Of a stretch of 64,000 bases of DNA, positions 1 to 22,776 are shown one piece after another. Each line of letters starts with the position of its first letter. Positions within the stretch are counted from its first letter, which is position 1. Location of the stretch: the NCBI GenBank assembly GCA_038207115.1, contig JBBRAC010000002.1, positions 57,819-121,818 of the forward strand. The letters are read 5' to 3'. The notes beneath the pieces are model-generated. The model was given only the letters and a program-made list of their open reading frames with translations, was not told the origin of the DNA and made no database searches. The position numbers and the translations under genes were made by a program. This DNA is from Candidatus Saccharimonadales bacterium. GTDB taxonomy: Bacteria; Patescibacteriota; Saccharimonadia; Saccharimonadales; UBA4665.

Positions 1-1
1 T

Positions 2-3541: not shown

Positions 3542-3607
3542 AATTATACTTCTTATAATAGCATCTTAATTCTCCTGGTTTTACTAGAATAATAGCTACT
3601 AAATAAG

Positions 3608-3616
3608 TGTTATCAT
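3608..3616 (+). promoter_or_regulatory. extended -10 promoter, leaderless configuration
   Basis: TGTTATCAT, then a 6-nt spacer (TAAGGT), then ATG 3623. No SD. Confidence 0.5.
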
Positions 3617-3622
3617 TAAGGT

Positions 3623-4084: not shown

Positions 4085-4115
4085 ATGTAATCTCTTTTCG
4101 CTATACTTAATTCTG

Positions 4116-4190
4116 GTTGCAACTTGGACAACGATGTCCCTCCAAACATAAGCGTTATGAAAGGCTTCTCAACTGAGAAGCCTTTTTGTT
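4116..4190 (+). repeat. intermodule element copy A (box + terminator hairpin)
   Basis: Box 4116-4153: GTTGCAACTTGGACAACGATGTCCCTCCAAACATAAGC. Hairpin AAGGCTTCTC/GAGAAGCCTT at 4161-4184, followed by a T-run. Confidence 0.7.
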
Positions 4191-4199
4191 TGATATGAT
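4191..4199 (+). promoter_or_regulatory. extended -10 promoter, leaderless configuration
   Basis: TGATATGAT, then a 7-nt spacer, then ATG 4207. Confidence 0.5.
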
Positions 4200-4206
4200 G
4201 TCTACT

Positions 4207-4656
4207 ATGAGAATAATAAATAGAAAAATTGCGGGGGCCTTCATTTTTTCTAGCGACGGAAAAGTCTTACTCGGTCATAATAAAAAAGGTGGAACGTACC
4301 AAGGTATGCTAGTTATCCCTGCTGGTGGTATCAAAGAACATGAAACGCCTTTCGAAGCAGTAAAGCGTGAAGTGTCTGAAGAGACCGGCCTCGATATATC
4401 GCACGCTTCAGTTAAACAATTTAAAACCATAGCTACTGGTGAGAGCGAAAAGACGCTCAAAGATACTAACGAAGTAGTCCATATGAAGATGGAATTTTAT
4501 GACTTCGAGGTGCGGATGCAAGAAGAGTCAAAGTCTCTCACACTAACATTTGAAGATGATTTTGGTGATGCTAAATGGTACACGCCCGCGGAGTTACGAA
4601 ACTTGCCAATCGGCCCTAACTCGCAAGCTGTGCTACAAAAGCTCCATTTTCTCTAA
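4207..4656 (+). CDS. NUDIX hydrolase
   Basis: Nudix box GGIKEHETPFEAVKREVSEETGL. Start 4207 was chosen from the promoter geometry; the ORF track starts at 4186 and ATG 4195 is also possible. Confidence 0.85.
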   Translation: MRIINRKIAGAFIFSSDGKVLLGHNKKGGTYQGMLVIPAGGIKEHETPFEAVKREVSEETGLDISHASVKQFKTIATGESEKTLKDTNEVVHMKMEFYDFEVRMQEESKSLTLTFEDDFGDAKWYTPAELRNLPIGPNSQAVLQKLHFL

Positions 4657-4660
4657 TTTC

Positions 4661-4736
4661 AGTTGCGATAGCGTGTACGATGGCCCTCCAAAGCATAAGC
4701 GTTATGAAAGACCTCTCCATCGAGAAGTCTTTTTTG
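4661..4736 (+). repeat. intermodule element copy B (box + terminator hairpin)
   Basis: Box 4661-4700: AGTTGCGATAGCGTGTACGATGGCCCTCCAAAGCATAAGC. Hairpin at 4709-4730, followed by a T-run. It begins 4 nt after the NUDIX stop. Confidence 0.8.
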
Positions 4737-4743
4737 CTATGAT
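4735..4743 (+). promoter_or_regulatory. extended -10 promoter, leaderless configuration
   Basis: TGCTATGAT, then a 7-nt spacer (ATAGCCT), then ATG 4751. Confidence 0.5.
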
Positions 4744-4750
4744 ATAGCCT

Positions 4751-5266
4751 ATGAACGATCCTAAACTAATCATATTAAGAGGACCATCTGGATCTGGAAA
4801 GACTATCATTTCCAAAATCTTGTTTGAGAAATCTCTAAACAAGATAGCACTTATTGAGCAGGATCATTATCGCTTTATTTTCAAGCCAGCGGGTGGTGGT
4901 GGCAAGACAAACTCGCCCACAATTCATAAAATGATTAAGAGCGATACACTCATAGCACTTAATGATGGTTACGATGTGGTACTAGAGGGAATACTAGGTG
5001 TTAATTCTTATGACACAGTATTGAAAGAAATTATGGATACACATCCGAATAATAATTTTTTATATTATTTCGATATAAGCTTTGAAGAGACAATACGTCG
5101 GCATTCAACTCGTATTGTTATGTTAGGTAGTGGATTTGACGAAGAAGACATGCGCCAATGGTACTCAGCTTCGCAAAAATCAATACACTTTACGGAAGAG
5201 ATTATACCCGAGCCATCGACGGTCAGAGACACTGTCATTCAGATTTTGTCTGATACTGGATTATAG
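4751..5266 (+). CDS. P-loop kinase-like protein (AAA_33/zeta-like)
   Basis: Walker A motif ILRGPSGSGKTIISK near the N-terminus. 171 aa. Substrate unknown. Confidence 0.6.
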   Translation: MNDPKLIILRGPSGSGKTIISKILFEKSLNKIALIEQDHYRFIFKPAGGGGKTNSPTIHKMIKSDTLIALNDGYDVVLEGILGVNSYDTVLKEIMDTHPNNNFLYYFDISFEETIRRHSTRIVMLGSGFDEEDMRQWYSASQKSIHFTEEIIPEPSTVRDTVIQILSDTGL

Positions 5267-5336
5267 TTCCAATAGCGTCTACTGTGGCCCCCAAGCATAA
5301 ACACTATGAGGACTTCTCAATTGAGGAGTCTTTTTT
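5265..5336 (+). repeat. intermodule element copy C (box + terminator hairpin)
   Basis: Box 5265-5302: AGTTCCAATAGCGTCTACTGTGGCCCCCAAGCATAAAC, overlapping the kinase stop codon. Hairpin GACTTCTCAA/TTGAGGAGTC at 5311-5330, followed by T6. Confidence 0.8.
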
Positions 5337-5422
5337 GTTTTGATGGCACAATGCTCATATGGTAGAAGTATTTATTTATTAACTGAAATTTTATCAGGAA
5401 GCGCAATCATCGGCGAGGCTAT

Positions 5423-6622
5423 CTACTTCTCCATAGCGCTACGACGATCAAGCCATATACGGTAGTCGGAAGTTACCATGTCAACGACATGAGAGCCAAA
5501 GCCTAATAAATTGTTACGAGGGTACAAATGGTTTTGTGGGCCGCAAAGGCCTGGCTCGTGCATCGTATACGTCGCCAAAGCGCCAAGCTCTGCAAGCTGC
5601 TCAGCTGAAACACGTAATTTTTTGGCTAGTTCTTCATTGCGAAAGATTGACGTAAATGGTTGATCCAAATCTATTTCGGAGTGAATCATTAGCGTTCCGG
5701 CCATTCCCATGCCAAGAATAGGAAGTGAAAAAGCCAAGGATGAGTCACCAAACGGTCGTTCAACGGCGGTATTAGCAATAGCAACTTTTACGAGGTTGCT
5801 TACGCCAAAGAACTGCCGGATGGCTATCTGCCTATCAATTGATCGGTCACTAAGTGCGTTAGAAACTGTCCACTCCGCCGGGCTGAAGCGGGGATAAAGC
5901 ACCTTTGGTCTTGGGGCGGCATAAATGTCAGGAAGCAATTCACCCGGTACACCCAGGTTAATAAGTTGTTCATGATGACGTCGGCCTATTACAGCGGGCC
6001 ATTCAGCTGTAGTCGCCGCCGAATCATCTCCGACGCCCCGGGCGCGATCAAGAAGTTTGAAAGCTCTACTTCGAGCTTTTTCGTCATTATTAGAAACTGC
6101 TTTGATCCAGTTTGAGGCGTATTTATTCGCCAATTCCGAATTCTGTAATTCTGGTACGGTAGCATTGGCGAGATACCATAATTTATGATAAGCCCAAGTT
6201 TCATCACCGTCCTTGTCTAGGTCAGACTCGTCAGTGACATCTGGCATAATTTCGGCATCATTACGCGTTAAAAGGCCCTTGCCAACTAGTCCGGCAGAGT
6301 ATTCCTTGGCCGTTGGTAGCTGGCGTTGCATGCGAAGAACTTCTTTTATAAAGCCACCTGGCGAATCAATTTCCTGCCCGCGATAACTATCTCTAAAACG
6401 ATTCCAAAGCGAGCCGTATGACAACGGATTCTGATCAATGCCGTGCGTGTCATATAGGTCCCATTCACCATTGGATTGAGCGGCATGACGTAGTTCATCG
6501 TCACTTCTACCTGGTAATTCAGGAGTCATGACCGGGAAATTTGTAGGGCTGTTCAACAAGTCGACTTCGGCAAGGCCAAATTCAACGTTTGTTGGTAATG
6601 AAATACGTTCTAAACCAGACAT
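5423..6622 (-). CDS. hypothetical protein (399 aa)
   Basis: Long uninterrupted ORF on the strand opposite to the boxes. No motif I can assign. Confidence 0.5.
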   Translation of the reverse strand: MSGLERISLPTNVEFGLAEVDLLNSPTNFPVMTPELPGRSDDELRHAAQSNGEWDLYDTHGIDQNPLSYGSLWNRFRDSYRGQEIDSPGGFIKEVLRMQRQLPTAKEYSAGLVGKGLLTRNDAEIMPDVTDESDLDKDGDETWAYHKLWYLANATVPELQNSELANKYASNWIKAVSNNDEKARSRAFKLLDRARGVGDDSAATTAEWPAVIGRRHHEQLINLGVPGELLPDIYAAPRPKVLYPRFSPAEWTVSNALSDRSIDRQIAIRQFFGVSNLVKVAIANTAVERPFGDSSLAFSLPILGMGMAGTLMIHSEIDLDQPFTSIFRNEELAKKLRVSAEQLAELGALATYTMHEPGLCGPQNHLYPRNNLLGFGSHVVDMVTSDYRIWLDRRSAMEK

Positions 6623-6705
6623 AATTTGTATATTTTAATACTATGTTATGAATATGTCAATAGTAGCGACACCTGCTCCTTTGCGAAATCACTTAGCCTA
6701 ATTTT

Positions 6706-6743
6706 AGTTCCCATAGCGCCTACAGGGGTCCTCCAAAGATACC
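6706..6743 (+). repeat. intermodule element copy D (box, GATACC subtype)
   Basis: AGTTCCCATAGCGCCTACAGGGGTCCTCCAAAGATACC. Downstream there is a long-range inverted repeat (ACAGATAC at ~6747-6754 with GTATCTGT at ~6799-6806) and a second partial box (TAGTTCCAATAT at ~6759-6770). Confidence 0.7.
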
Positions 6744-6833
6744 TAAACAGATACCAGCTAGTTCCAATATCACAACCCTGTTTTATTGTAACTAATTTGT
6801 ATCTGTTATTTAGTTCTAACCCCATTTGGTGTT

Positions 6834-6842
6834 TGTTACAAT
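6834..6842 (+). promoter_or_regulatory. extended -10 promoter, leaderless configuration
   Basis: TGTTACAAT, then a 6-nt spacer (TACATT), then ATG 6849. Confidence 0.5.
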
Positions 6843-6848
6843 TACATT

Positions 6849-7334
6849 ATGGAACAGTTTGATTTAGTAGACGAGAATGACATTGTTATTGGTACGACCG
6901 ACAAACCTACTGCCCATTCAACCATACAGCTTCACAGAGTTGCAGCTGTACACGTATTTAATGATCAAGGTGAGCTGTATGTTCAAGTACATAAATCCAG
7001 GGGTGGACTTTTTGACCATTCTGTAGGTGGTCACGTTTCAAAAGGCGAAGATTATGCCACAGCCGCAAGCCGTGAAGCAGATGAAGAACTCGGCATTAAG
7101 CAACTACTAACTAAACCTGCAACTTTTTATTCCGATGAGGGCGTTTATTCACATATGTTCGGGCTTTTCGAATGTGTCGCCGACCCAAGTTGGCAATTTG
7201 TACCTAACGATGAAGTTGAAGAAATTATACCTATGAGAATTGATGAAATCACAGAACTAATGGAAACTGAACCAGAAAAGTTTACCGGTGGGTTCATAAA
7301 TACAATGAGAGAATACCGCAAAATTAAAAACTAG
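6849..7334 (+). CDS. NUDIX hydrolase
   Basis: Nudix box GGHVSKGEDYATAASREADEELGI. Confidence 0.85.
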   Translation: MEQFDLVDENDIVIGTTDKPTAHSTIQLHRVAAVHVFNDQGELYVQVHKSRGGLFDHSVGGHVSKGEDYATAASREADEELGIKQLLTKPATFYSDEGVYSHMFGLFECVADPSWQFVPNDEVEEIIPMRIDEITELMETEPEKFTGGFINTMREYRKIKN

Positions 7335-7365
7335 TAGTAATATGGCCGCCACTTGATTGAATGAA

Positions 7366-7433
7366 AGTTGCGATAGACAAGACTATGGAACTCCAATACG
7401 CTTGTGCCTAAAACTCCTCTAATCTGAGGAGTT
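7366..7433 (+). repeat. intermodule element copy E (box, GACAAGAC subtype, + hairpin)
   Basis: Box 7366-7401: AGTTGCGATAGACAAGACTATGGAACTCCAATACGC. Hairpin AACTCCTC/GAGGAGTT at 7412-7433. Confidence 0.7.
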
Positions 7434-7438
7434 CATAC

Positions 7439-7490
7439 TTGACAGAATAATTAACTTAGAGTACAGTTTTATGTACAAGTATTTGTACAT
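7439..7490 (+). promoter_or_regulatory. yefM-yoeB promoter and palindromic operator
   Basis: TTGACA at 7439-7444, a 17-nt spacer, then TACAGT at 7462-7467. Palindrome ATGTACAA-GTAT-TTGTACAT at 7471-7490, carrying two TGTACA cores immediately before ATG 7491. Confidence 0.6.
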
Positions 7491-7745
7491 ATGAAAATAG
7501 CATCAATCTCAAAATTTCGTAAAGACATAAAGCGCTATGTGGATGAAGTAGACCAAGACCAGGAGCCTTTAATAGTCACAAGGGCTGATAACGTTTCGGT
7601 TGTGGTAATACCCCTTAGCACGTTTAACTCCTACTCAGAGACTGAGTATCTCCTGCGTAGTCCCGCCAATGCTCGCCGTCTCTTAAAATCTCTTGAACAT
7701 GCTCGTTCTGGAAACGTTCAAGCCCACGAACTAATAGAGGATTAA
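7491..7745 (+). CDS. yefM: type II antitoxin, Phd/YefM family
   Basis: 84 aa. N-terminus MKIASISKFRKDIKRYVDEV...PLIVTR, typical of YefM. Sits 4 nt upstream of the YoeB-like gene. Confidence 0.85.
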   Translation: MKIASISKFRKDIKRYVDEVDQDQEPLIVTRADNVSVVVIPLSTFNSYSETEYLLRSPANARRLLKSLEHARSGNVQAHELIED

Positions 7746-7749
7746 TTCA

Positions 7750-8010
7750 ATGAGCAGAAGGCTCACTTTCACACCTGAAGCTTGGGAAGAGTATCTTTAC
7801 TGGCAAAGTCATGATAAACAATTACTTAAAAAGCTCAACCAACTACTTAAAGAATACCAACGTGATCCGCTTGCAGGCATAGGCAAGCCAGAAACTCTTA
7901 AGGGAGACCTGTCTGGTTCTTGGTCAAGGAGAATTAATGACGAGCATCGTCTAGTCTACATAACAAACGATGACGAAATTAGAGTTACGTCATGTCGTTA
8001 TCATTATTAG
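7750..8010 (+). CDS. yoeB: type II toxin, Txe/YoeB family
   Basis: 86 aa. Sequence: FTPEAWEEYLYWQSHDKQLLKKLNQLLKE...GIGKPETLKGDLSGSWSRRINDEHRLVY...SCRYHY. Confidence 0.85.
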   Translation: MSRRLTFTPEAWEEYLYWQSHDKQLLKKLNQLLKEYQRDPLAGIGKPETLKGDLSGSWSRRINDEHRLVYITNDDEIRVTSCRYHY

Positions 8011-8143
8011 ATTAGTGTCTAATTAGTACAGGTGTCCATAATTTAATTTTGGGAGACACTTTACCACAAGCTAGGAACACAGATATTCGTGGTGAGGGAT
8101 GTGCTCCGCTCGTTAAACATGAACTGTACCTACTCTAATAAAA

Positions 8144-8216
8144 ATTGCGATAGCGTCTACGGTGGCCCTCCAAAACATAAGCAGTATAAAAGACTTCCCA
8201 ATTGGGAAGTCTTTTT
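8144..8216 (+). repeat. intermodule element copy F (box + terminator hairpin)
   Basis: Box 8144-8182: ATTGCGATAGCGTCTACGGTGGCCCTCCAAAACATAAGC. Perfect hairpin AGACTTCCCA/TGGGAAGTCT at 8191-8212, followed by a T-run. Confidence 0.8.
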
Positions 8217-8219
8217 GTT

Positions 8220-8228
8220 TGGTATGAT
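8220..8228 (+). promoter_or_regulatory. extended -10 promoter, leaderless configuration
   Basis: TGGTATGAT, then a 6-nt spacer (AATTGC), then ATG 8235. Confidence 0.5.
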
Positions 8229-8234
8229 AATTGC

Positions 8235-8882
8235 ATGACGAAAACACCTTCCATGCAAGAGATACTCGATAAAGTAGAATTTTTGTTTGAACGCTACTCA
8301 CTAAAATGAAGAGCAACCACACAGCCATACATACTAAAAGTTGCCGAGTGACAACTCGAGGGCCATACATACCACCCAGACGATGATTTGGTTCGCGAAA
8401 CGCTTATTGAGCATGTGGGCTCGTTGCCGATGCTTGGTACGGCACTCTACCCACTTATCAATGACCCCGAGGTTGATCTAGGACAGTCACTAATAATGAT
8501 GGCAACCCACGACATAGGCGAACTCATTACTGGTGACGAAATGGTTTTTACCAAAAAAGCTGACTCGCATATTGCGGAACGTAAAGCCGCCCTTGAACTG
8601 CTTGATCCTATGTACCATGCCATTTACGATAACGCCGAAACCAAAACGAGTAAGTCGGCAAAGTTCGCAAAGTCTATTGATAAGATCAACCCCGATATTA
8701 TCGATTACTTGATGCCACCCGAAATTACAAAGTGGCGATATAAAGAATATGTTGGTATTGAGCCAGAGCAAATTATTGAGACTATCGTCAAGCACAAACG
8801 TCCTCATATGCTCTGGAATCCTTTCATGACTGAATTTTACATATACCTTCTTGAACAACTTGATAAAAAACTTCGAGCCTAG
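8235..8882 (+). pseudogene. HD-domain phosphohydrolase (YfbR/HD_3-like), possibly inactivated by two in-frame TGA codons
   Basis: HD motif MATHDIGELITGDE. The leaderless ATG at 8235 is in the same frame as the ORF-track ORF (8388, TTG start). TGA codons at 8307-8309 and 8349-8351 interrupt that frame. Alternatively, a shorter protein may initiate at TTG 8388. Confidence 0.5.
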
Positions 8883-8953
8883 GCATATTGATTAGCTTAG
8901 TCCTGATAAGCTCCACGATGGCTCTCCAGCCCCGCTCGTAAAACTTCTCTGTT

Positions 8954-10191
8954 ATGAGGAGTGTTGCTATGATGATATTAATGAACTCTACACAGATAGC
9001 GCAATATAACGCCAGGCTGGCTAACATATCAGACTTCTTGTCTGGCTCGACTTTTATTTTGGCCATTTGGCTGCTGTACAGCTTGAACGTCTTACATCTA
9101 AAACCAACATTAGCAGTTATTACGTTTATGACCATCTGGATAGGTAGTGCGATACTGGAAATCCCCACCGGTGCTTTAGCCGATCGTGTAGGCAGGAAAA
9201 GAATCTTTATTATTGGCAACTGCTGTTCTGCCTCTATCCACTAGCCTAAGCCTTCAAGCTCCCTATAATCCCGCTTATAGCAACTTGTTTAGTAAGCGCA
9301 CTCGGCAGTGCTATGCGCTCTGGTTCGCTACTGCCAATTGTTCATGCCAGCTTCAAGAAAGCCGAGCTTGGAGACAAAGCCTACGAGCGCTTCCTAAGTG
9401 GTAATACTATGGCTACATTCGTCGCTAGGGCAGCTACTGGCTTAGCTGGTGCATGGCTGTACACGCTGAACCATACTTGGCCGTTCTATGCGATGTTCTT
9501 AGTAACATTCATGAACTTTTTACTCGGTTTTTACATCAAGGACACGGCAATCGAAGTAGATGAAAATGCCGTTAAAACGACTAATAATCAGCACATTAAG
9601 CAAACCCTAAGCACTATTCGTAGAAGCGACGTGGTGTTTGCTATAATCGTGGCCTTTGGACTACTTAACCTCGCAGCCGAGGCAACCTGGACAGGCTACC
9701 AAGTGTTCTTCCAATCAGACGGCCGAAGCCCATTCATAATTGGTGCGTTGTTTACGATAATTGCTTTCTGCTCGGCTACGTCAGCATATTTTATTCGTTT
9801 TGCTATCGGTAAGTTTCGGCCGCTCAACCTTATCCAATTTTTTGGGCTTGGCGTACTGCTGACCACTGCGTTAATCCTTCAGCCAAACCATGCACTACGC
9901 TTATTTGCCGTTGTGCCAATGGGGTTTGCATCAGGAACAAGCGCATTTGTTATGAACGCCAGCGTGCAGAAGTTCATTGCTAATCGCTATCAAGCAACGG
10001 CACTCTCGGTGGTGAGTTTTGTGACATACGCAGTTTATGGGATTGGCTCTATAGGTTTTGACGTTCTGCTGCAAATCTTTGGTGCCTCAAAAGTCAGGGC
10101 TATTTTGCTAGGAACAGCCTTACTGGTATCGGTAGCAATCGCTCTGTACAGCACTGGCCGAGTTAAGAAGGTTCCGTTAGAGACTGTTTGA
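8954..10191 (+). pseudogene. MFS transporter, disrupted
   Basis: The N-terminal piece (frame of 8954) carries MFS motif A (GALADRVGRKR) and stops at 9242-9244. The rest continues in the frame of 9313 (...ALGSAMRSGS..., multiple TMs). That frame has a TAA at 9247-9249, so at least two lesions are needed to explain the break. Confidence 0.65.
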
Positions 10192-10250
10192 ACTGATAGG
10201 CTAGATCAGCCCTGGGGTAGATGGCTTGTCTGGCTATTCACTTGGATTTT

Positions 10251-10315
10251 AGTTGCAATAGCGTTGACGGTGGCCCTCAATATCGTTTAAACAAAGACAG
10301 TGGTTCACTGTTTTT
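10251..10315 (+). repeat. intermodule element copy G (box + terminator hairpin)
   Basis: Box 10251-10280: AGTTGCAATAGCGTTGACGGTGGCCCTCAA. Hairpin ACAGTG/CACTGT at 10297-10311, then T5, then TGCTATTAT (10315-10323). Confidence 0.75.
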
Positions 10316-10372
10316 GCTATTATAGTTAAGCAAACAAATGGTTTAGTGGATTGTATTCTAAGGAGGTAAATT

Positions 10373-11107: not shown

Positions 11108-11184
11108 GCCTCAATTTAAAAAATACCTATTATGTAGTTGGCATATGTATTTCTAACAGATTAATTAAATGCGGCCTCGGTTAC

Positions 11185-12327
11185 TTAAGCCAGCCGGGCT
11201 TCTTCGCTCATAAGATTCTGCCTGAAATAGTGCATTGCACATTGACCTGCCATATTTGCCGCCAGCTCAAGAGTAGACAGTTTTTCGTCGCCAGCCAAGC
11301 ATTCTTGGCGATATCGAATAAGACGTCTACCGATTTCCTTCAGAGCCGCTCGTTTCACCAGCTCCTCATCCGTAATGCCGACCTCAATCACATTTACACT
11401 GAAGTCAAACTGTGATTCCATAGCCTTTATATACCCCGCAGCATCGGGAAGATAGCCAACCATCTCTGCTAGCAATGCAAAATTCTCACAGTCCTTATCA
11501 TAATTTGTCCTTCCGCTACCCAAGTCGACTAGCCGATTGCCCAAATCGGCTGTGGCGGCGATGAATGCCAAATTTATGGGATGATCTGGGCTAAGACTAA
11601 ATATAGGAAACGTTTCAAATTTAGCAAAACCGACAGGTTCGCTGGCCGCTAGCTTTTTATATATCTCCGATAGAGCCACACCAAATTTTCCACTACCTCC
11701 TCCTGGACTCAGGAGTACCAAACTTCGATTAGGATCGGCAATTGTGTCATCGCCACCAAAGATGGTATCAAACTTTTCACCGTCTAGGCAGTTCGTATCT
11801 GGGTACCCGGGCACTTCGTAGCAAAACGACAGAGTTATTCCTGTACTCCGATACAAAGTGGCTGCAAAATTTTCAATAGCAGTGACATTTGCTTGTTCCA
11901 TTTGCCGAGGGGTGACTGCAACAACTACACTTTCGACGTCAATACCGTGAACTTGCTTGGCCTCGTTTACGATACGTACTGTTTCATCGTCGTAGCGCAA
12001 CCCAGAGTCACCGCGTATTCGACCATGCAAAGTTCGCCCTTCTGGGGGATAAAGAATATCACGAGCATTGACCACCATAGCGATTTTACTGTTGCACTCT
12101 TGTTGCAACCCGCGAACTATGGCTGCTTTATTGTCTGGGTTATAACCAGGGAAAACACGAGCTGCGTGGTGATCACCAAATGGCTTGCCACCAAACTCAA
12201 CTATAAGGTTTGCATCAGGCATGCTCTTCATACGACCTTGGAATGCGGCTAGCTGCGCTTCTAGATAGAGCTCATTATTAAAGGCCGGCTGGTCCAAAAC
12301 CACAGGCGTGGTTTTTTCGCCACTCAT
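11185..12327 (-). CDS. DUF1846 (UPF0371) family protein
   Basis: Family-typical strings: VEFGGKPFGDHHAARVFPGYNPDNK, SPGGGSGKFG, AKFETFPIF, HPINLAFIAATADL. The start overlaps the upstream kinase stop (TAATG). Confidence 0.7.
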   Translation of the reverse strand: MSGEKTTPVVLDQPAFNNELYLEAQLAAFQGRMKSMPDANLIVEFGGKPFGDHHAARVFPGYNPDNKAAIVRGLQQECNSKIAMVVNARDILYPPEGRTLHGRIRGDSGLRYDDETVRIVNEAKQVHGIDVESVVVAVTPRQMEQANVTAIENFAATLYRSTGITLSFCYEVPGYPDTNCLDGEKFDTIFGGDDTIADPNRSLVLLSPGGGSGKFGVALSEIYKKLAASEPVGFAKFETFPIFSLSPDHPINLAFIAATADLGNRLVDLGSGRTNYDKDCENFALLAEMVGYLPDAAGYIKAMESQFDFSVNVIEVGITDEELVKRAALKEIGRRLIRYRQECLAGDEKLSTLELAANMAGQCAMHYFRQNLMSEEARLA

Positions 12328-12947
12328 TAAATTTCAAGTATTCTATCGCTAATAGTGTCGACAACTTCCTCAAGTACAAGGTTATCAGTATCTATTATGA
12401 CACCCCCAAAAGGCGCCCGAGCCTCAACCTGTTCCAATAAAGAACGAGTCATTTCAAACAACCTATGCCCCGGTAGATTTGGCTGATAATCTTCGGGGCG
12501 TACATCGCTCTTTGTTACTAGACGCCGCTGTCGAACCGCCTCACTAACACTAAGTAATACCGCAAGGTCCGGCTCACGTATAAGCGGTCCTACGCACTCG
12601 TCAGCGTCGAAGCCACGATATTTTAGATCAGCTCGGACATCAAATATACCCCTATCTTTAACGACTGTGACCCCCAAGTCTGTTAGCTCTGTAATGACCA
12701 TACTATCCACGGATGTTTTAGCAGCTTGTAGCGCTATAAAATATTTGGACTTGTCGCCTATTTCTTCTCGTAAAGAGCGATTCGAGAATGGGTTATGCCA
12801 GTTATTGTCTTCACGCCAATCATCAAAGAAAATGGCAGGGTGGCCATGTGCGTTGAGTCGACCGGCTACCTTACGCCCAACAGTAGTTTTACCAACACCG
12901 TCCGGTCCATGGATTGTAATATATGAAGATTTTTCTAAACGTATCAT
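12327..12947 (-). CDS. thymidylate/deoxynucleoside-kinase-like P-loop protein
   Basis: Walker A motif ITIHGPDGVGKTTVGRKV. 206 aa. Operonic with NUDIX (upstream) and DUF1846 (downstream). Confidence 0.6.
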   Translation of the reverse strand: MIRLEKSSYITIHGPDGVGKTTVGRKVAGRLNAHGHPAIFFDDWREDNNWHNPFSNRSLREEIGDKSKYFIALQAAKTSVDSMVITELTDLGVTVVKDRGIFDVRADLKYRGFDADECVGPLIREPDLAVLLSVSEAVRQRRLVTKSDVRPEDYQPNLPGHRLFEMTRSLLEQVEARAPFGGVIIDTDNLVLEEVVDTISDRILEI

Positions 12948-12972
12948 TCTGAGTTACCATGGTGTTTCGTCA

Positions 12973-13404
12973 TTAAAGAATTTGTAAGAATAAATCAGAC
13001 CCCTGTGAATTACTACTAACAGATTCCAGCATTCCTGCAATCTCGTCACCTCTCATAAGGCCCTGCAGGGCGAGCTTACGCACCGAATCAAGCGACATAT
13101 ACTCACTTTTATGCTGCCCAGAAAATTCTGGTTCGTTTGCTACGGTGCATACGAAAACGAACTTGATTACGGTATTGCCTTCGTGTGAATTTGGCTTGTT
13201 GACAACTCCTACAAGCTTTTCCGAGGTAACTTGGTAGCCAGTTTCTTCTCTTACTTCACGACGCAAACAGTCAATAATACTCTCAGCTTCCTCCAGTTTG
13301 CCGCCCGGCAAGCCCCATTTTCCGACAGCGCTAGGCTTCGTTTCTTTGATAAGCAAAAATTCGTCATCTTTTCGTACAATAGCACTACTCACAACTACAA
13401 TCAT
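12973..13404 (-). CDS. NUDIX hydrolase
   Basis: Nudix box GGKLEEAESIIDCLRREVREETGY. Confidence 0.85.
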   Translation of the reverse strand: MIVVVSSAIVRKDDEFLLIKETKPSAVGKWGLPGGKLEEAESIIDCLRREVREETGYQVTSEKLVGVVNKPNSHEGNTVIKFVFVCTVANEPEFSGQHKSEYMSLDSVRKLALQGLMRGDEIAGMLESVSSNSQGSDLFLQIL

Positions 13405-13491
13405 GAGACACCCCTAACTTCGGTCATATTTTGCGCAAGAGTATTATTATACAGTATTTAGGCTCTCGGTGCGTATCGGTGGTCCGGTTCC

Positions 13492-13529
13492 AGTTGCGAC
13501 AGCGTCCATGGTGGCCCCCCAAAGATACC
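13492..13529 (+). repeat. intermodule element copy H (box, GATACC subtype)
   Basis: AGTTGCGACAGCGTCCATGGTGGCCCCCCAAAGATACC. It is preceded by a partial tandem copy (GTGCGTATCGGTGGTCCGGTTCC, 13469-13491). Downstream there is an inverted repeat, AGAGATATAGA...TCTATATCT. Confidence 0.75.
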
Positions 13530-13589
13530 TCAAGAGATATAGATTAGTTCCTGTTAAAGCATCGTTGTTTTTTGTCACTATTCTATATC

Positions 13590-13598
13590 TGTTATCAT
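13590..13598 (+). promoter_or_regulatory. extended -10 promoter, leaderless configuration
   Basis: TGTTATCAT, then a 6-nt spacer (TTTGCT), then ATG 13605. Confidence 0.5.
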
Positions 13599-13604
13599 TT
13601 TGCT

Positions 13605-14000
13605 ATGACAAATCACCTTATAGACCCACGCATTGATGAATACCTACGCAGCCTGCCTGAATGGCAAGGAAACATTTGTAATCAAATCCGTGAGCTTATA
13701 CACGAGGCTGACTTAGGTATAGCCGAGACCATTAAATTCACAAATAGACCATACTTCATTTTGAACGGTAACATCTGTGCATTACTTGCTACAAAAAGCC
13801 ACGTTAATGTATTTATTTACGACCCAATAGCTCCTGACCCAGAAAACATTATTAATCAGGGGCACCGTAATCAGACTCCTCGGTCAATCCAAATTAAAGA
13901 AAGTGATCAAATTAATTCAAATGCACTAAAAAACCTTATCAAGGCGGTTGCAGATAATAATAAAGCAGGCGGTTGGCGAAAACTTCAAAAAGCTAAATAG
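13605..14000 (+). CDS. DUF1801 (YdhG-like) domain protein
   Basis: Sequence: IDEYLRSLPEWQGNICNQIRELIHEA...ETIKFTNRPYF...KSHVNVFIY. Start taken at ATG 13605 from the promoter geometry; the ORF track starts at 13572. Confidence 0.6.
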   Translation: MTNHLIDPRIDEYLRSLPEWQGNICNQIRELIHEADLGIAETIKFTNRPYFILNGNICALLATKSHVNVFIYDPIAPDPENIINQGHRNQTPRSIQIKESDQINSNALKNLIKAVADNNKAGGWRKLQKAK

Positions 14001-14019
14001 ATATTCTGTCATTGAAAAT

Positions 14020-14052
14020 AGTTGCCATAGACAAGACGATGGATCTCCAAAT
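14020..14052 (+). repeat. intermodule element copy I (box, GACAAGAC subtype)
   Basis: AGTTGCCATAGACAAGACGATGGATCTCCAAAT. It shares the GACAAGAC.ATGGA.CTCCAA variant with copy E. Confidence 0.65.
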
Positions 14053-14204
14053 TAATCATCCACGATTGCATAGGTTATTCTAACGGTTGCGTTTGAAATT
14101 GGAAGTCAGGTACTTTAAACCATTAGGAGGGGCGGAGTATACTGTATGTGTATTCAACTAACAGCAGCTAAAAATAAACGTTTCTAGACGTCGGATGTCA
14201 CAGC

Positions 14205-15932
14205 ATGGTACGCCCCGAGAACCCCGTAGTATTATTGGAAGATAATACATACTTCTCACCGGAAATCACCCCGGAGGACGGATCTCGGCTTGTGCTCGAC
14301 CTGGCGGCCTTGGCCATGCTCGCCACCAATCCGATCGAAGCAGCTGCAGAAACAGACCGCAGCACTGAAGCGTTCCGCGTGTGGCGTAACCCTGACACGT
14401 ATGAAGTAAGTATCGACAGCAGCATCACACTTGAAGATTACCGGGGCATAACAGCGCCCGAGGATATGGCGCTGCTGGAACAGCAGGCTGAGGGCCTACG
14501 CGGGAAAAAGGTGGTATTCATCAACCCTACGCTGGAAGGCGGCGGCGTGGCCATGCTACGACCGCCACTCATCCATTTGCTGCGGCAGTTAGGCGTTGAC
14601 GCACACTGGTACGTCATGGATGGCCGGAAAAAACCTGATGACCCAAATCCCTTCGACTTTACCAAGCTCATGCACAACATCTCGCAGCGGCGCATGCCAG
14701 CCGACGTACGGATTACCGAAGGAGGCAAAGCAGTACACTGGCGGTGGAACACCGAAAATGCTGAGGTTTTGCTGGTGCAAGACACCATCCTGACGGCCGA
14801 CATTATTATACCCGATGATCCGCAACCGGCACCGCTCATCCGCGGTCTCCAAGCCGCCAACCCACAGGCTAAAATAATATCGCGTAACCACATTGACACC
14901 TCGTACGACTTGATTGCTGACCCCACCACACCGCAAAGTGAATTAGCGCGGTACCTTTTGGATGAATGTGGCATGCGAGGTGTCGATGCAATCGTGACAC
15001 ACCCTGTGGATGCCTTCATGTATCCCGGTATGGAGGATAAGACCTTTTTTGCGCCGGCTACCGTGGAACCGTTTGATGACCTAAACAGAGCGCTCACCGA
15101 AACAGAAATTAATGATGGACTGACATTCATTAACAGCGAAATATCGGCTAAAAACCTTGAGTCGGCAGTGGCGGGCCACCCGGAAGACTTGCAAGCGTTG
15201 GTCGACCCTACACAGCGGCGTATTATTCTGGTAGCGCGATTTGATGAATCAAAAGGCATGCACCTGGCGATGGAGCTGGGCGTACGCACCCGGGAAAAGA
15301 TGCGCGCCGGCGGCGTGGCCGAAGCAGCTTTACCGCAAGTAATTATCGTTGGCAATGGTTCCGTCGATGACCCGAGCGGGGTGCCAATGTTTGAGAAGAT
15401 GATGAAGCTCAGGCGAGAAAAGTATCCGGACGAAATGGAGGGTATCATCCTGATGCGCCTGAAGCACAATTACAAAGCCATGAATGCGCTGATGTACCCA
15501 TCATCGGCTGCTGGCGAGGCCAGCCCGGCGCCAGTCATTGGCATACAGACTTCCGAAGCAGAGGGCTGTGAAACACGCATTAGTGACTGGATCCGTCACG
15601 GTATACCGGTCGTTGTTGCTAACCGGGGCGGCATGCCCTTGCAGGTGGTCGAAGGCCAATCTGGCTTCATTCTCGACTTTGGCAAGCCCGACTTCGACCT
15701 CGACCACGGCGCCAACCTTATCTGCGAGCAGATGACAGACGCCGAAAAATATGCAGCCCTGTGCCGTACCACCCTTAGCACGGCCGAGACTTTCAATAAC
15801 CGGGATTTCACCACGGTGGCAAATACCATTCGGTGGATGCGCATTTTCACGAGCGTGCTCAACGGTACCCCGGCCGACAAACACTGGAAGCTCGACGACT
15901 TAGCCGGGCAGAAATTGTTACAAGCCTCCTAA
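14205..15932 (+). CDS. GT4-family glycosyltransferase, trehalose synthase/phosphorylase (TreT)-like
   Basis: 575 aa. N-terminal GT-B signature INPTLEGGGVAMLRPPLIHLLRQLGVDAHWYVM. C-terminal half: SEAEGCETRISDWIRHGIPVVVANRGGMPLQVVEGQSGF. Markedly GC-rich relative to its flanks. Confidence 0.55.
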   Translation: MVRPENPVVLLEDNTYFSPEITPEDGSRLVLDLAALAMLATNPIEAAAETDRSTEAFRVWRNPDTYEVSIDSSITLEDYRGITAPEDMALLEQQAEGLRGKKVVFINPTLEGGGVAMLRPPLIHLLRQLGVDAHWYVMDGRKKPDDPNPFDFTKLMHNISQRRMPADVRITEGGKAVHWRWNTENAEVLLVQDTILTADIIIPDDPQPAPLIRGLQAANPQAKIISRNHIDTSYDLIADPTTPQSELARYLLDECGMRGVDAIVTHPVDAFMYPGMEDKTFFAPATVEPFDDLNRALTETEINDGLTFINSEISAKNLESAVAGHPEDLQALVDPTQRRIILVARFDESKGMHLAMELGVRTREKMRAGGVAEAALPQVIIVGNGSVDDPSGVPMFEKMMKLRREKYPDEMEGIILMRLKHNYKAMNALMYPSSAAGEASPAPVIGIQTSEAEGCETRISDWIRHGIPVVVANRGGMPLQVVEGQSGFILDFGKPDFDLDHGANLICEQMTDAEKYAALCRTTLSTAETFNNRDFTTVANTIRWMRIFTSVLNGTPADKHWKLDDLAGQKLLQAS

Positions 15933-15972
15933 GCCATGTATAAACTTGGTTCAAACGATGTTAAAAAAGCTG

Positions 15973-16001
15973 TTGACGACAAATATTCTACTTGCTATAT
16001 T
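15973..16001 (+). promoter_or_regulatory. sigma70-type promoter (orphan)
   Basis: TTGACG at 15973-15978, a 17-nt spacer, then TGcTATATT with the hexamer at 15996-16001. Confidence 0.55.
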
Positions 16002-16007
16002 CTTTCA

Positions 16008-16156
16008 CGGAAGACCAAGTGAAACAGCACATTAGTTCGATATATGTAGCCAATCGAGTTAGTAAGTTACGAGTTTGTTAGTTAGTAAGCTACATCTGTG
16101 GGTGCAAGTCTTCCCGTAAGTAATAAGAGGCACGATACTAGTGCCTCTTATTTTTT
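16008..16156 (+). ncRNA. candidate structured small RNA (unknown family)
   Basis: Lies between a consensus promoter and a strong intrinsic terminator (AATAAGAGGCAC/GTGCCTCTTATT at 16122-16152, then a T-run). Nested stems: ACGGAAGAC (16007-16015) with GTCTTCCCGT (16108-16117), and ATGTAGC with GCTACAT. There are two direct GTTAGTAAG(T/C)TAC repeats. No ATG-initiated ORF. Confidence 0.35.
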
Positions 16157-16445
16157 ATCCTTTTACCTGTATAAGCTATCCAGCTACATTCATAGCTAAG
16201 ATAGCTAAAGATTCAGATAACTTAGATGTAGATTTTGAGCTTGCAGAACAGGCTTCTAAAGGCAGCCCCCTCCAAGCAAACTGGCAAGAAAATCGCCTTT
16301 TTGCATCAAAGGAAAAACTGTATACCGACACCGCCAAACGGCTCTTCGAGCAATTGTCCATCAGTAATCCACACGATTGGCATCTAAATGGGCGCAATCG
16401 ACGTAAAGCTGGTGACTGGAAAAGCTGACTTCAAAATCGAATCTC

Positions 16446-16483
16446 AGTTTCGATAGCGTTCACGGCAGAACCCATATATAAGC
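16446..16483 (+). repeat. intermodule element copy J (box)
   Basis: AGTTTCGATAGCGTTCACGGCAGAACCCATATATAAGC. Confidence 0.6.
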
Positions 16484-16528
16484 AGTTCGGAAGACCACTT
16501 CTAAAGCATTTGAAATTCATGTAAACTA

Positions 16529-16565
16529 TTGACATTTAGTCTAATGTACATACAATAGACTAAAT
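16529..16565 (+). promoter_or_regulatory. TA-operon promoter with flanking 9-bp inverted repeat (operator)
   Basis: TTGACA at 16529-16534, a 16-nt spacer, then TACAAT at 16551-16556, then 7 nt to ATG 16564. TTTAGTCTA (16535-16543) and TAGACTAAA (16557-16565) are a perfect inverted pair bracketing the -10. Confidence 0.55.
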
Positions 16566-16839
16566 GAAAACCGCTACAGTAAATTTTAAAACCGATGAAG
16601 CGACTAAGCTTAAGGCCCAAAAAGTGGCCAGTCAGATTGGCATCCCTCTCAGCAATCTCTTGAACGCATATCTTTACGAGCTTGCAAACACAGGCAGTGT
16701 TCATTTTACCGCGTCAGAACCTATGACAGAAAAGATGGAACTATTGATTGCTGAAGCCGAAAAAGAGATTGCTGCTGGTGAAGTAAGCGGCCCATTTGAG
16801 TCTCTCGAAGAAATGTTTACACATCTAGATAGCCTGTAA
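16564..16839 (+). CDS. type II antitoxin, RelB/DinJ family
   Basis: Sequence: MKTATVNFKTDEATKLKAQKVASQIGIPLSNLLNAYL. The stop overlaps the toxin start (TAATG). Confidence 0.75.
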   Translation: MKTATVNFKTDEATKLKAQKVASQIGIPLSNLLNAYLYELANTGSVHFTASEPMTEKMELLIAEAEKEIAAGEVSGPFESLEEMFTHLDSL

Positions 16840-17096
16840 TGGTTATTAAAACTACAAAAGGTTTTGATAAGCAATATGCTAAGGTAAACATCAAAATTAA
16901 AACCGCTTTTAAAAATCGCATAAACTTATTTAAGGCAAACCCATTTGATACAAGTCTAAGGAATCATTCTCTTAAGGGCAGATACTTGGGCTATCGGAGC
17001 ATAGATATTACCGGCGATGTCCGAGCACTCTATACAACGCAAGGCGATACAATTATCATATTCGGATTCATCGGAACACATAGCCAGCTATATTAA
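16839..17096 (+). CDS. type II toxin, RelE/YafQ family mRNA interferase
   Basis: 85 aa. Sequence: FDKQYAK...NPFDTSLRNHSLKGRYLGYRSIDITGDVRALY...IIIFGFIGTHSQLY. Confidence 0.75.
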   Translation: MVIKTTKGFDKQYAKVNIKIKTAFKNRINLFKANPFDTSLRNHSLKGRYLGYRSIDITGDVRALYTTQGDTIIIFGFIGTHSQLY

Positions 17097-17120
17097 AAAT
17101 ATAAGCCTTACTTATATTTT

Positions 17121-17156
17121 ACGACAGCAAAGGCTAGGCTCCTCCTAGCATAAGCG
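17121..17156 (+). repeat. intermodule element copy K (degenerate box)
   Basis: ACGACAGCAAAGGCTAGGCTCCTCCTAGCATAAGCG keeps the ...CTCC...GCATAAGCG 3' part of the box. Confidence 0.4.
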
Positions 17157-17183
17157 TACAAACGATTCCGCGCCGGGGTTATA

Positions 17184-17192
17184 TGCTAGACT
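17184..17192 (+). promoter_or_regulatory. extended -10 promoter, leaderless configuration
   Basis: TGCTAGACT, then a 6-nt spacer (AATTTT), then ATG 17199. Confidence 0.45.
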
Positions 17193-17198
17193 AATTTT

Positions 17199-22464: not shown

Positions 22465-22541
22465 GCGCCCGTAGCTCAGTGGATTAGAGTACTTGGCTTC
22501 GGACCAAGGGGTCGTAGGTTCAAATCCTGCCGGGCGTACCA
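22465..22541 (+). tRNA. tRNA-Arg (anticodon TCG), CCA encoded
   Basis: Manual cloverleaf. Acceptor GCGCCCG/CGGGCGT (G1-U72 wobble). D arm GCTC...GAGT. Anticodon stem CTTGG/CCAAG with loop CTTCGGA. T arm GTAGG-TTCAAAT-CCTGC. Then A-CCA. Confidence 0.9.
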
Positions 22542-22719: not shown

Positions 22720-22761
22720 TCCTCTCTGAACCCTAAAAAGACGTCCAACTGGTGCTTCTTT

Positions 22762-22770: not shown

Positions 22771-22776
22771 ACTGCT

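Follow-up and report, generated by a model that had tools for sequence, protein, structure and literature searches.

A Same-Strand Array of Box-Bounded Gene Modules

We analyzed a 64-kb stretch of a Candidatus Saccharimonadales contig (JBBRAC010000002.1; here called the window), in which an array of small gene modules is bounded by copies of a short conserved sequence, the box, that ends in the last bases of tRNA-Lys. Between 4.1 and 17.2 kb, 11 boxes on the same strand and one decayed terminal copy split the DNA into 11 modules, which we call cassettes. The box is 30 nt long (consensus AGTTGCGATAGCGTCTACGATGGCCCTCCA) and has two parts: positions 1 to 20 (AGTTGCGATAGCGTCTACGA) form a conserved arm that is not tRNA-like and closes every cassette, and positions 21 to 30 (TGGCCCTCCA) form the core, which is followed by a short trailer.

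A repeat search of the window returned a 41-nt family, all on the plus strand, with copies at 4107, 4653, 5257, 6698, 7358, 8135, 10243, 13484, 14012, and 16438; these starts sit 8 to 9 nt 5′ of the box starts, and the family contains all ten plus-strand copies listed in an earlier note on this DNA. The 38- to 40-nt consensus given there is too long: the conserved core of the repeat spans only 30 nt, the 40-nt consensus is met by just two copies at ≤3 mismatches, and its extra ...AAGCATAAGC belongs to one of several trailer subtypes and not to the box. A position weight matrix (PWM) trained on boxes from related genomes, with a null maximum of 16 bits per 64-kb strand in 50 shuffles, gives 19 to 49 bits for ten boxes (starts at 4115, 4661, 5265, 6706, 7366, 8143, 8899, 10251, 13492, and 14020). 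Among them is an eleventh copy that had escaped notice (8899, 20.5 bits), just 3′ of an HD-domain open reading frame (ORF). The box at 16446 scores a weak 13.7 bits, under the null maximum, and is accepted on its register and position. A degenerate copy had also been proposed at 17121, and reading the sequence shows it to be a real but strongly decayed box (17117–17146, 16 of 30 positions matching) with an intact AGCATAAGCGT trailer; the boxes at 4115, 8899, and 16446 are degenerate too. The PWM scan found no further copies on either strand of the 64 kb.

The features of the array and of the block preceding it are listed here, with PWM scores in bits and domain assignments from Pfam unless stated otherwise.

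1–4114, +: block 5′ of the first box, with DISARM class 2 genes and a 153-aa ORF without assigned function
74–712: C-terminal part of DrmA, cut by the window start (PADLOC, 1e-58)
682–2550: DrmB (PADLOC, 5e-81)
2522–3541, −: DrmMII C5-methylase (PADLOC, 1e-108)
3623–4084: the 153-aa ORF, with its own TGTTATCAT promoter
4115–4144, +: box 1, GGTTGCAACTTGGACAACGATGTCCCTCCA (19.3), with a degenerate left arm and a core intact bar one mismatch; then a type-2 trailer and a terminator at 4159–4186
4145–4660, +: cassette 1, with trailer, terminator, promoter, and NUDIX hydrolase ORF 4186–4656 (NUDIX, 3e-16)
4661–4690, +: box 2, AGTTGCGATAGCGTGTACGATGGCCCTCCA (49.4), its core at 4681–4690 equal to the tRNA-Lys 3′ end; then an AAGCATAAGCGTTATG trailer, a hairpin and T-run at ~4707–4735, the extended −10 sequence TGCTATGAT at 4735–4743, 7 nt, and the ATG at 4751
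4691–5264, +: cassette 2, P-loop zeta-toxin-like kinase ORF 4751–5266 (Zeta_toxin/AAA_33), whose stop overlaps box 3
5265–5294, +: box 3 (38.4); then a terminator at 5308–5333
5295–6705, −: cassette 3, opposite-strand 399-aa ORF 5423–6622, with a homologue in the array of locus L010
6706–6735, +: box 4 (31.5); type-3 trailer (AAGATACCTAAACAGATACC...) with a nested partial box and a long-range inverted repeat
6736–7365, +: cassette 4, NUDIX ORF 6849–7334 (NUDIX, 5e-12)
7366–7395, +: box 5 (22.7), with variant center GACAAGAC; type-1 trailer ATACGCTTGTGCCTAAAAC, then a hairpin
7396–8142, +: cassette 5, Phd/YefM antitoxin 7491–7745 and YoeB toxin 7750–8010
8143–8172, +: box 6 (48.0); then a terminator at 8188–8215
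8173–8898, +: cassette 6, HD-domain ORF 8388–8882 (HD_3, 1e-7)
8899–8928, +: box 7, AGTCCTGATAAGCTCCACGATGGCTCTCCA (20.5)
8929–10250, +: cassette 7, MFS transporter gene in two ORFs, 8954–9244 and 9313–10191 (MFS_1 on both)
10251–10280, +: box 8 (41.9)
10281–13491, mixed strands: cassette 8, four genes
10373–11107, +: cassette 8 gene 1, FMN reductase-like
11185–12327, −: cassette 8 gene 2, DUF1846
12327–12947, −: cassette 8 gene 3, thymidylate-kinase-like
12973–13404, −: cassette 8 gene 4, NUDIX
13492–13521, +: box 9 (39.3); type-3 trailer
13522–14019, +: cassette 9, DUF1801 ORF 13572–14000
14020–14049, +: box 10 (21.3), variant center as in box 5
14050–16445, +: cassette 10, trehalose-synthase-like glycosyltransferase 14205–15932 (TreT_GT1), 51% GC, and a 95-aa ORF
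16446–16475, +: box 11, decaying, AGTTTCGATAGCGTTCACGGCAGAACCCAT (13.7)
16476–17116, +: cassette 11, RelB antitoxin 16564–16839 and YafQ toxin 16839–17096
17117–17157, +: terminal box (below threshold) and its intact type-2 trailer AGCATAAGCGT at 17147–17157, the distal end of the array

The three terminators given after boxes 1, 3, and 6 are the strongest predicted in the region by a terminator scan, all of them directly 3′ of boxes. The stop codon reported to overlap the box at 5265 is that of the cassette 2 ORF, which ends inside box 3. The modules are heterogeneous in base composition, as had been proposed, but the suggested contrast of 37% versus 63% GC is not borne out, the per-cassette values being 0.365 to 0.508. 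The three box subtypes described before do exist as sequence variants, but they are variants of a tRNA trailer that each cassette bears and not different boxes.

The MFS gene of cassette 7, in pieces of 96 and 292 aa, is a pseudogene, that is, decaying cargo; the same gene order around it (8954–10191) occurs in L080, a short contig from SRR19962014 (L numbers denote related loci). The 399-aa protein of cassette 3 has no match in Pfam or PADLOC and is an opposite-strand cassette in two arrays (window 5423–6622 and L010:3558–4757). The DISARM block may be a large proximal multigene cassette of the same array. Exact-protein look-ups for strain variants of the window array gave only short contigs with unchanged gene order. 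By gene order, the distal flank of the window array (a CHAP-domain gene, tRNA-Arg(TCG), and tRNA-Arg(CCG)) resembles that of L058, where both tRNA-Arg genes are likewise 3′ of the array; the CHAP-domain gene of the window is the representative of a six-member cluster.

The Box across Saccharibacteria

We ran a degenerate 24-nt strict pattern derived from the box against one genome per GTDB species and obtained 79 matching DNA stretches, ~70 of them from Saccharibacteria/Saccharimonadales assemblies or from small, probably mis-binned contigs, while ~8 are isolated chance matches in unrelated taxa (~17 expected). Bases that the pattern leaves unconstrained are conserved as well, namely AG on its 5′ side and TCCA on its 3′ side, extending it to the 30-nt core AGTTGCRATAGCGTCTACGRTGGCCCTCCA, and the sequence farther out is unrelated. 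The related loci used below are 8-kb blocks fetched because of their match to the strict pattern and then rescanned for boxes, a selection that affects copy numbers, the inference of one locus per genome, and the test for an age gradient. The rescan yielded 212 boxes in 77 loci, including 181 boxes in the 46 loci with at least two, and none of these 46 has boxes on both strands. Spacing between boxes has a median of 741 nt (interquartile range 603–1066 nt). The strict pattern is limited to a single 8-kb block on each of six large contigs (383 kb to 1.9 Mb, among them the complete genome CP064992.1), which, together with the single strand per locus, indicates that the box is confined to one co-oriented array per genome.

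This distribution bears on whether the box is a self-copying element of the repetitive extragenic palindromic (REP) or miniature inverted-repeat transposable element (MITE) kind, or else the attC site of an integron without integrase (cluster of attC sites lacking integron integrases, CALIN), either of which we regard as scarcely credible. The intergenic 3′ position of the box, the nested partial copies in type-3 trailers, and the integron-like cargo would fit such an origin. The box is not palindromic, never takes the opposite strand within a locus, and occupies one block per large contig: the opposite of the genome-wide, bidirectional dispersal that the earlier note had named as fatal to the idea of a module array, and no support for its suggestion that the unit itself propagates. 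The attC site is an imperfect palindrome of 57 to 141 nt that forms a single-stranded DNA hairpin with R″/L″-L′/R′ boxes (RYYYAAC...GTTRRRY), and intI is not required for a CALIN. The box lacks the R″/R′ architecture, a bulged hairpin, and an inverse core 5′ of GTTGC, is conserved in sequence across species, unlike attC, and is accompanied by no intI gene in the window ORFs scanned or among the families listed for the related loci. Single-stranded folds of five window boxes, taken on both strands as had been advised, have minimum free energies of −1.4 to −3.7 kcal/mol and z scores of +0.35 to +1.06 in nine of ten cases and −0.52 in one (10243–10290, minus strand), none being clearly more stable than shuffles. 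The REP, MITE, or CALIN reading is thus largely refuted, and with neither attC structure nor intI the array is not a member of the integron family.

Pairwise identity at arm positions is mostly 0.8 to 0.97, equal within and between genomes, so that the arm, a segment outside the tRNA-derived core, looks to be under selection. The same equality holds at all 30 box positions; concerted evolution of boxes within a genome was considered and rejected, as no position has excess identity within genomes. A single recognition system and a single clade-wide pool of cassettes would account for this pattern.

In ~20 species, tRNA-Lys and the array adjoin the core genes murD, murI, and folD at a conserved chromosomal position. 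Depending on the species, the tRNA-Lys–array segment takes either orientation on the same side of folD (L008, L023, and L053 versus L003, L005, L009, and others), which implies that it was inverted at some point in a few species.

The Box Core Is the 3′ End of tRNA-Lys

The ten bases of the box core are the last ten bases of tRNA-Lys: the acceptor 3′ strand, the discriminator base, and CCA. They are exact in 130 of the 212 boxes. The relationship was first exposed by a comparison of L001 with L002, messy overall, in which one homology breakpoint falls not on a box but on an in-array tRNA-Lys(TTT) that ends in ...GGGTTCAAGTCCCAGATGGCCCTCCA, the last 10 to 12 nt of the box. The tRNA-Lys genes in L001, L002, and L018 have the terminal sequence ...CCCAGATGGCCCTCCA, and the trailers 3′ of them are those that also follow boxes.

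A tRNA-Lys gene is present in 35 of the 77 box-bearing blocks, with anticodon CTT in 31 and TTT in 4. It is on the box strand in 34 of the 35, no box is 5′ of it in 33 of these 34, and the nearest downstream box is a median of 660 nt away: tRNA-Lys heads the array in the related loci. Two differences set the tRNA junction apart from the box junctions. Immediately 5′ of TGG, 25 of 34 tRNAs have C, whereas ~97% of boxes have A or G and the eight most frequent box variants all lack C there; within one locus, the trailer that follows the tRNA is not the one that follows the first box. This restricts any crossover to the 10 nt that tRNA and box share, positions 21 to 30. The identity of box core and tRNA end places the array among integrative elements that target tRNA genes.

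In L004, at ~5943–5975 in box-oriented coordinates, an exact core with a terminator stands without a tRNA or the canonical arm (...GGGTTTCAAAAATGTATATCC/TGGCCCTCCA), and other kinds of element may use the same core; as in the window, several kilobases of larger genes separate this arm-less core site from the regular boxes.

The tRNA identity also bears on a further reading, that the box is a chromosomal dif site and the modules an array of integrative mobile elements exploiting Xer (IMEX), to which we give hardly any credence. An apparent 11-6-11 layout with partial dyad symmetry (GCGATAG/GCCATCG) recalls dif, a local recombinase would not be needed, and there is one locus per genome. The box arms match the 28-bp consensus of XerC arm, 6 bp, and XerD arm (…TTATGTTAAAT) at only ~5 to 6 of 11 positions each when compared by eye with E. 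coli dif, a weak test. The arrays lie beside folD and tRNA-Lys and not at the terminus, with a core that is the tRNA-Lys 3′ end, and no consistent switch of GC skew is seen across arrays at 47 to 52 loci: mean skew is −0.008 upstream and −0.005 downstream and is positive in 43% and 48% of loci, 8-kb blocks limiting the power of this comparison.

Gain, Loss, and Exchange of Cassettes

One pair of loci captures the gain or loss of a single cassette. In L018 the order is tRNA-Lys...CCCTCCA/AGCATAAGCGTTTTATAATTTCAG... (cassette A, with an opposite-strand 133-aa ORF), then a box. In L002 it is tRNA-Lys...CCCTCCA/TGAAAACATAAAC... (cassette X, 533 nt, with a 94-aa membrane ORF), then ...AGTTGCGATAGCTTCGCACATGCCCCTCCA/AGCATAAGCGTTTTATAATTTCAG... 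(cassette A), then a box. The two copies of cassette A share 97% identity over 517 nt, and cassette X with its own box is an insertion exactly at the tRNA end, after CCTCCA. As read from the two sequences, this difference is the signature of site-specific integration with duplication of the core, and it provides one clean instance of the module gain or loss with breakpoints at the box that had been proposed as a check.

Breakpoints of homology in general favor the same place. Of 74 right ends of BLAST segments between genomes, 24 lie between −20 and +60 nt from a box or tRNA end, against 4.3% at random, and 16 of these 24 are at offsets of +29 to +33, 0 to 3 nt after CCA. Pairs of junctions that share flanks number 12 for the upstream flank only, 37 for the downstream flank only, and 3 for both, the downstream counts being inflated by conserved trailers; we relied on the BLAST segment ends instead.

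Cassettes of the window recur beside different neighbors in other genomes. The Phd/YoeB cassette has homologues in the arrays of L072, L038, and L002 (tblastx) and the RelB/YafQ cassette in those of L026, L028, L057, L001, and L002, and a homologue of the window glycosyltransferase gene lies beside the one-box array of L009. The proposal of exchangeable modules bounded by a recombination-type junction is upheld by this recurrence and by the breaks in homology at the box.

Cassette Anatomy and Cargo

Junctions typically have a regular order: upstream stop codon, arm, core, short trailer, GC-rich hairpin with T-run, promoter, ATG. A co-oriented ORF ends ≤30 nt 5′ of the box in 140 of 212 cases, in agreement with the earlier observation that boxes come shortly after gene ends, and the stop codon overlaps the box in 38; among the 163 boxes with a co-oriented ORF within 300 nt, a median of 10 nt separates stop codon and box. 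Terminator-like hairpins are found at 89 of 238 junctions versus 10 of 308 random positions, and the motif TGnTAnnAT-N4-9-ATG at 67 of 238 versus 10 of 308. The succession of box, hairpin with T-run, and TGnTATgAT promoter near the ATG, previously described for the window, is thereby confirmed at window box 2 and enriched across loci.

Type-1 and type-2 trailers are two versions of one quasi-palindromic 12-mer, A[AC]GC[AT]TA[AT]GC[GT]T, with forms ACGCTTATGCTT (type 1) and AAGCATAAGCGT (type 2) and an example in the window at 4692–4703. Starting 1 to 4 nt after CCA, it is present in 50 of 211 box trailers, 12 of 34 tRNA-Lys trailers, and 3 of 385 random positions, and it partly resembles the box arm (GCGATAGCGT). 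It could be a second recombinase arm or a tRNA 3′-processing signal. Since the first cassette supplies the 3′ flank of tRNA-Lys, each cassette would have to bring a trailer and a terminator, which would explain why so many boxes have a terminator on their 3′ side. The promoter, in turn, would free a cassette from its position in the array.

Many kinds of gene are carried. In-array ORFs have a median length of 167 aa, 147 of 186 being co-oriented with the boxes and 39 opposite. Among the Pfam families listed for 141 in-array ORFs, NUDIX accounts for 8 ORFs and HAD for 7, and others are YafQ, ParE, and YoeB toxins, RelB and Phd antitoxins, methyltransferases, GNAT acetyltransferases, DUF6364, and DUF5674. 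Larger cassettes hold metabolic enzymes, and APH kinases and a Vgb lyase occur beside arrays. The likeness to sedentary chromosomal integrons drawn before is apt for both architecture and cargo.

The position of the box could also suggest a conserved RNA element of the 3′ untranslated region (UTR), acting in stability, processing, or termination, with the DNA array incidental; this alternative, raised by the earlier note, appears very improbable to us. The box does lie in the 3′ UTR, at the median distance from the stop given above and before the terminator, and contains CCUCC. Yet it has no stable fold on either strand and no Rfam match (at the gathering score, Rfam 15 finds only the two tRNA-Arg genes in the 64 kb). 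Conservation is of the primary sequence, and the sole candidate pairing, AGCGU/ACGCU between the arm (AGCGT) and the type-1 trailer (ACGCT), was rejected on inspection, with no compensatory changes. The conserved 3′ part is explained by the tRNA-Lys end, exactly where the insertion polymorphism breaks, and the 39 opposite-strand ORFs nevertheless sit inside box-bounded modules.

Search for a Recombinase

No recombinase was found in the window by Pfam on 49 ORFs or by phmmer with XerD and lambda Int on open frames of at least 80 aa; with the boxes unstructured, the earlier statement that neither attC nor integrase is in view stands. The same two queries returned nothing from 1,914 open frames, an insensitive search in which the queries do not detect each other, and the recombinase searches as a whole would miss highly divergent enzymes. 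A cognate autonomous element, whether an integrative and conjugative element (ICE), an integrative and mobilizable element (IME), or a phage, likewise does not appear in the 8-kb blocks of the 77 loci.

A single enzyme came into question. Among the PHROGs families listed for 116 ORFs of 230 to 560 aa from the related loci, the only "integrase" match is a large serine recombinase (L067:1485–3080, with Resolvase, Recombinase, and Zn-ribbon domains), the sole recombinase near a box. Its family, ~530 aa long, has 797 relatives in Saccharibacteria and Patescibacteria, the best at 46 to 85% identity. At the three loci examined (L067:1420–3080; L083:10001–11358, in CP064992.1; L084:8278–9941), the gene converges with a tRNA-Leu, the two sharing ~22 nt at their 3′ ends, and no boxes or repeated tRNA-Leu fragments occur within 10 kb; at two of the three it adjoins an SBP_bac_5–SecG–holin–PepP group. 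In CP064992.1 the recombinase is at 1.053 Mb and the tRNA-Lys array at 0.292 Mb, ~465 kb apart. We rejected it as the cassette recombinase on these grounds, that is, its link to tRNA-Leu, the lack of boxes nearby, and the distance from the array; the family may be a domesticated or resident tRNA-Leu-linked recombinase, and we treat it as a separate system.

Origin of the Array

We consider it likely, with good confidence, that small integrative gene cassettes have accreted in tandem at the 3′ end of tRNA-Lys, that the 13-kb region represents the distal portion of the resulting array, and that the boxes are the attachment-site scars of serial, site-specific integration of such cassettes at this gene. 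A cassette would be at least transiently circular, with a site composed of arm, TGGCCCTCCA, tRNA trailer with terminator, promoter, and ORF. A recombinase encoded elsewhere in the chromosome and acting in trans would cross the circle with the same 10 nt at the tRNA-Lys end or at a resident box. The tRNA would be rebuilt and then served by the trailer and terminator of the incoming cassette, whose gene would be transcribed from an extended −10 promoter that it brings along, in many cases into a leaderless mRNA. Insertion next to the tRNA would be the usual route, displacing older cassettes distally. With arm, core, and trailer kept at every junction, cassettes would stay excisable and exchangeable among species, and the locus would work like a sedentary integron in which tRNA-Lys plays the part of attI and the box that of attC, as a site of a different kind.

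The serious rival, though we think it improbable, holds that the boxes are fossil attR scars of large tRNA-Lys islands or prophages whittled down by deletion, the modules never having been singly mobile. Tandem accretion and decay at tRNA genes are well known, with partial tRNAs and degenerate remnants in tycheposons (bioRxiv 10.1101/2020.12.28.424599). The missing integrase, the degenerate boxes at 4115, 8899, 16446, and 17117, the broken MFS gene, and the multi-kilobase DISARM block ahead of the first box would all suit such remnants. What speaks against them is the uniform design of the modules, which are consistently small (by the median spacing), in many cases start with a terminator and promoter, and end a few nucleotides after a stop codon in a preserved 20-nt arm, a pattern that random deletion would not yield. 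The arm, moreover, is equally conserved between and within species in >200 copies, one locus has and another lacks a 533-nt single-gene cassette with exact junctions, and integrase fragments are not seen in the arrays.

Several findings nonetheless weigh against serial integration of small cassettes. The window array lacks the expected head, as no tRNA-Lys was found in the 64 kb by ARAGORN, Rfam, or blastn; the gene presumably lies beyond the left edge of the window. Integrase families are absent from the Pfam families listed, the 25 with the most members, for the 141 in-array ORFs and the 116 ORFs of 230 to 560 aa, two IMG/VR scans gave no true match to a box-bearing virus, and no free circular cassette or box-bearing plasmid was found. 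Box quality declines only weakly with distance from the tRNA (rho = −0.21, p = 0.09, not significant), and a recognizable trailer motif is kept by a minority of junctions (24 to 35%, versus 0.8% at random). Exchange between genomes is also possible by transformation and homologous recombination through the conserved boxes, which would complement, and not replace, a site-specific origin of each junction.

A broader form of the integrated-cassette proposal, to which we give somewhat less than an even chance, is that the arrays constitute a clade-wide, independently evolved, integron-like platform on which a conserved, off-array recombinase reshuffles single-gene cassettes from a cross-species pool. 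Saccharibacteria have ~1-Mb genomes, live attached to host bacteria, and have few recognized mobile elements, and how they gain flexible genes is poorly understood. If the platform exists, it could be a main route by which accessory and defense genes enter these competent, genome-reduced epibionts, and further lineages of the Candidate Phyla Radiation may perhaps have it too. Should the cassettes be actively mobilized, evolution would have arrived a second time, independently, at what integrons achieve, here with a simple 30-nt duplex site that would be directly testable and perhaps exploitable once the recombinase is found.

A full-text literature search found no published description of such arrays in Saccharibacteria or Patescibacteria. 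They form a dedicated, position-conserved hotspot in dozens of species, made of one-gene modules bounded by a single conserved site and containing toxin-antitoxin pairs, NUDIX and HAD hydrolases, resistance-like enzymes, and possibly whole defense systems. The marker GTTGC.ATAGC....AC..TGGCCCTCCA can be used to find this store of accessory genes in any Saccharibacteria assembly. Even as mere accretion scars, such miniature, integrase-less, uniformly ended cassettes would be unusual among tRNA-linked islands.

Comparison with Known Systems

Integration at sublocations of the tRNA 3′ end was reportedly set out by Williams in 2002. Islander-type islands are bounded by an intact tRNA on one side and by a displaced copy of the tRNA 3′ end on the other, are stacked in one orientation, and restore the tRNA, all as here: the intact tRNA heads the array in related loci (33 of 34) and is not inside the window, and TGGCCCTCCA with the same trailer classes follows both tRNA and boxes. 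An integrase within the island, by contrast, was detected neither in nor beside the arrays of the 77 loci or the window. Inserts here are mostly 0.4 to 1.5 kb, with one or two genes and no integrase, excisionase, or replication genes, the repeat combines 10 nt of tRNA with a 20-nt clade-wide arm, and up to 8 boxes are packed within 8 kb, with 12 junctions in the window.

Cis-mobilizable elements (CIMEs) that accrete at ICE sites of streptococci, one of them the tRNA-Lys(CTT) hotspot of Streptococcus agalactiae, are said to have been described by Pavlovic in 2004, Bellanger in 2011, and Puymege in 2013. CIMEs are flanked by att sites, carry no recombination genes of their own, lie in tandem, and depend on a recombinase from elsewhere, and they share the target, the tRNA-Lys 3′ end; our cassettes are similarly att-flanked and contain cargo only, without recombination or transfer genes. 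CIMEs occur in small numbers, measure kilobases, and clearly stem from a cognate ICE with a known integrase, whereas here there are many tiny cassettes with a clade-conserved site and no parent element or integrase in sight.

Tycheposons are tRNA-linked islands of Prochlorococcus in which partial tRNA copies occur and new arrivals push older ones inward (bioRxiv 10.1101/2020.12.28.424599). The resemblance lies in a streamlined genome, flexible genes beside particular tRNA genes, and partial tRNA copies between elements. A tycheposon has a tyrosine or large serine recombinase, usually a replication module, and several kilobases of cargo, with one or two per genome (bioRxiv 10.1101/2020.12.28.424599). 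The units described here have one gene, a uniform end, and no recombinase or replication genes, so that only the tRNA-linked tandem layout is common to both.

Sedentary integrons and CALINs resemble the arrays in being long, co-oriented, and mostly of single ORFs, with a site near or overlapping the stop codon; the co-oriented array of short cassettes ending in a site is borne out by the 181 boxes of the 46 multi-box loci. They also share interspersed toxin-antitoxin, NUDIX, acetyltransferase, and methyltransferase cargo and a pool common to several genomes. They differ in that the site here is a 30-nt, unstructured, sequence-conserved duplex and not a folded attC, the head of the array is a tRNA gene instead of an attI with intI and the cassette promoter Pc, and many cassettes have their own promoter and terminator. 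Islands of the staphylococcal cassette chromosome mec (SCCmec) type likewise stand in tandem behind the 3′ end of a conserved gene (rlmH/orfX) with short direct repeats, some units lacking ccr, but their target is protein-coding, the elements measure 3 to 60 kb, and Ccr serine recombinases are known.

By mechanism the arrays group with tandem integrative elements of tRNA 3′ ends, and by function they are like a sedentary integron. What distinguishes them is the set of miniature, integrase-less, one-gene cassettes, a uniform 20-nt arm, a 10-nt tRNA core, class-wide conservation of site and locus, and a recombinase that is not nearby.

Other Features of the Window

The sequence at 22691, which the earlier note had counted as an outlying box, reads instead as a decayed copy of the 3′ half of the neighboring tRNA-Arg(TCG). 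That gene occupies 22465–22541, and the decayed copy lies ~150 nt on, at ~22686–22715 (GGGCAATCCTCCTAGGCGTACTCC versus GGTTCAAATCCTGCCGGGCGTACCA). A hairpin, a TGTTATGAT promoter, and an apparently leaderless NUDIX ORF (22777–23262) come after the fragment, and the region (22465–23262) looks like a second tRNA-gene integration scar.

A block of ~60% GC spans 38700–47500, the rest of the window having 40 to 53% GC. It holds a ParA-like ATPase (38722–40269), three large ORFs without a Pfam match (40783–45469), and an NlpC/P60 and M23 peptidase (46008–47525), and it looks like horizontally acquired DNA related to conjugation or the cell wall, possibly from a high-GC host such as an actinobacterium. 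A 354-aa ORF at 53514–54578, 36 kb away from the array, has an IS30-type HTH_38 N-terminal domain and probably encodes a transposase; no other mobile-element enzyme was seen in the window.

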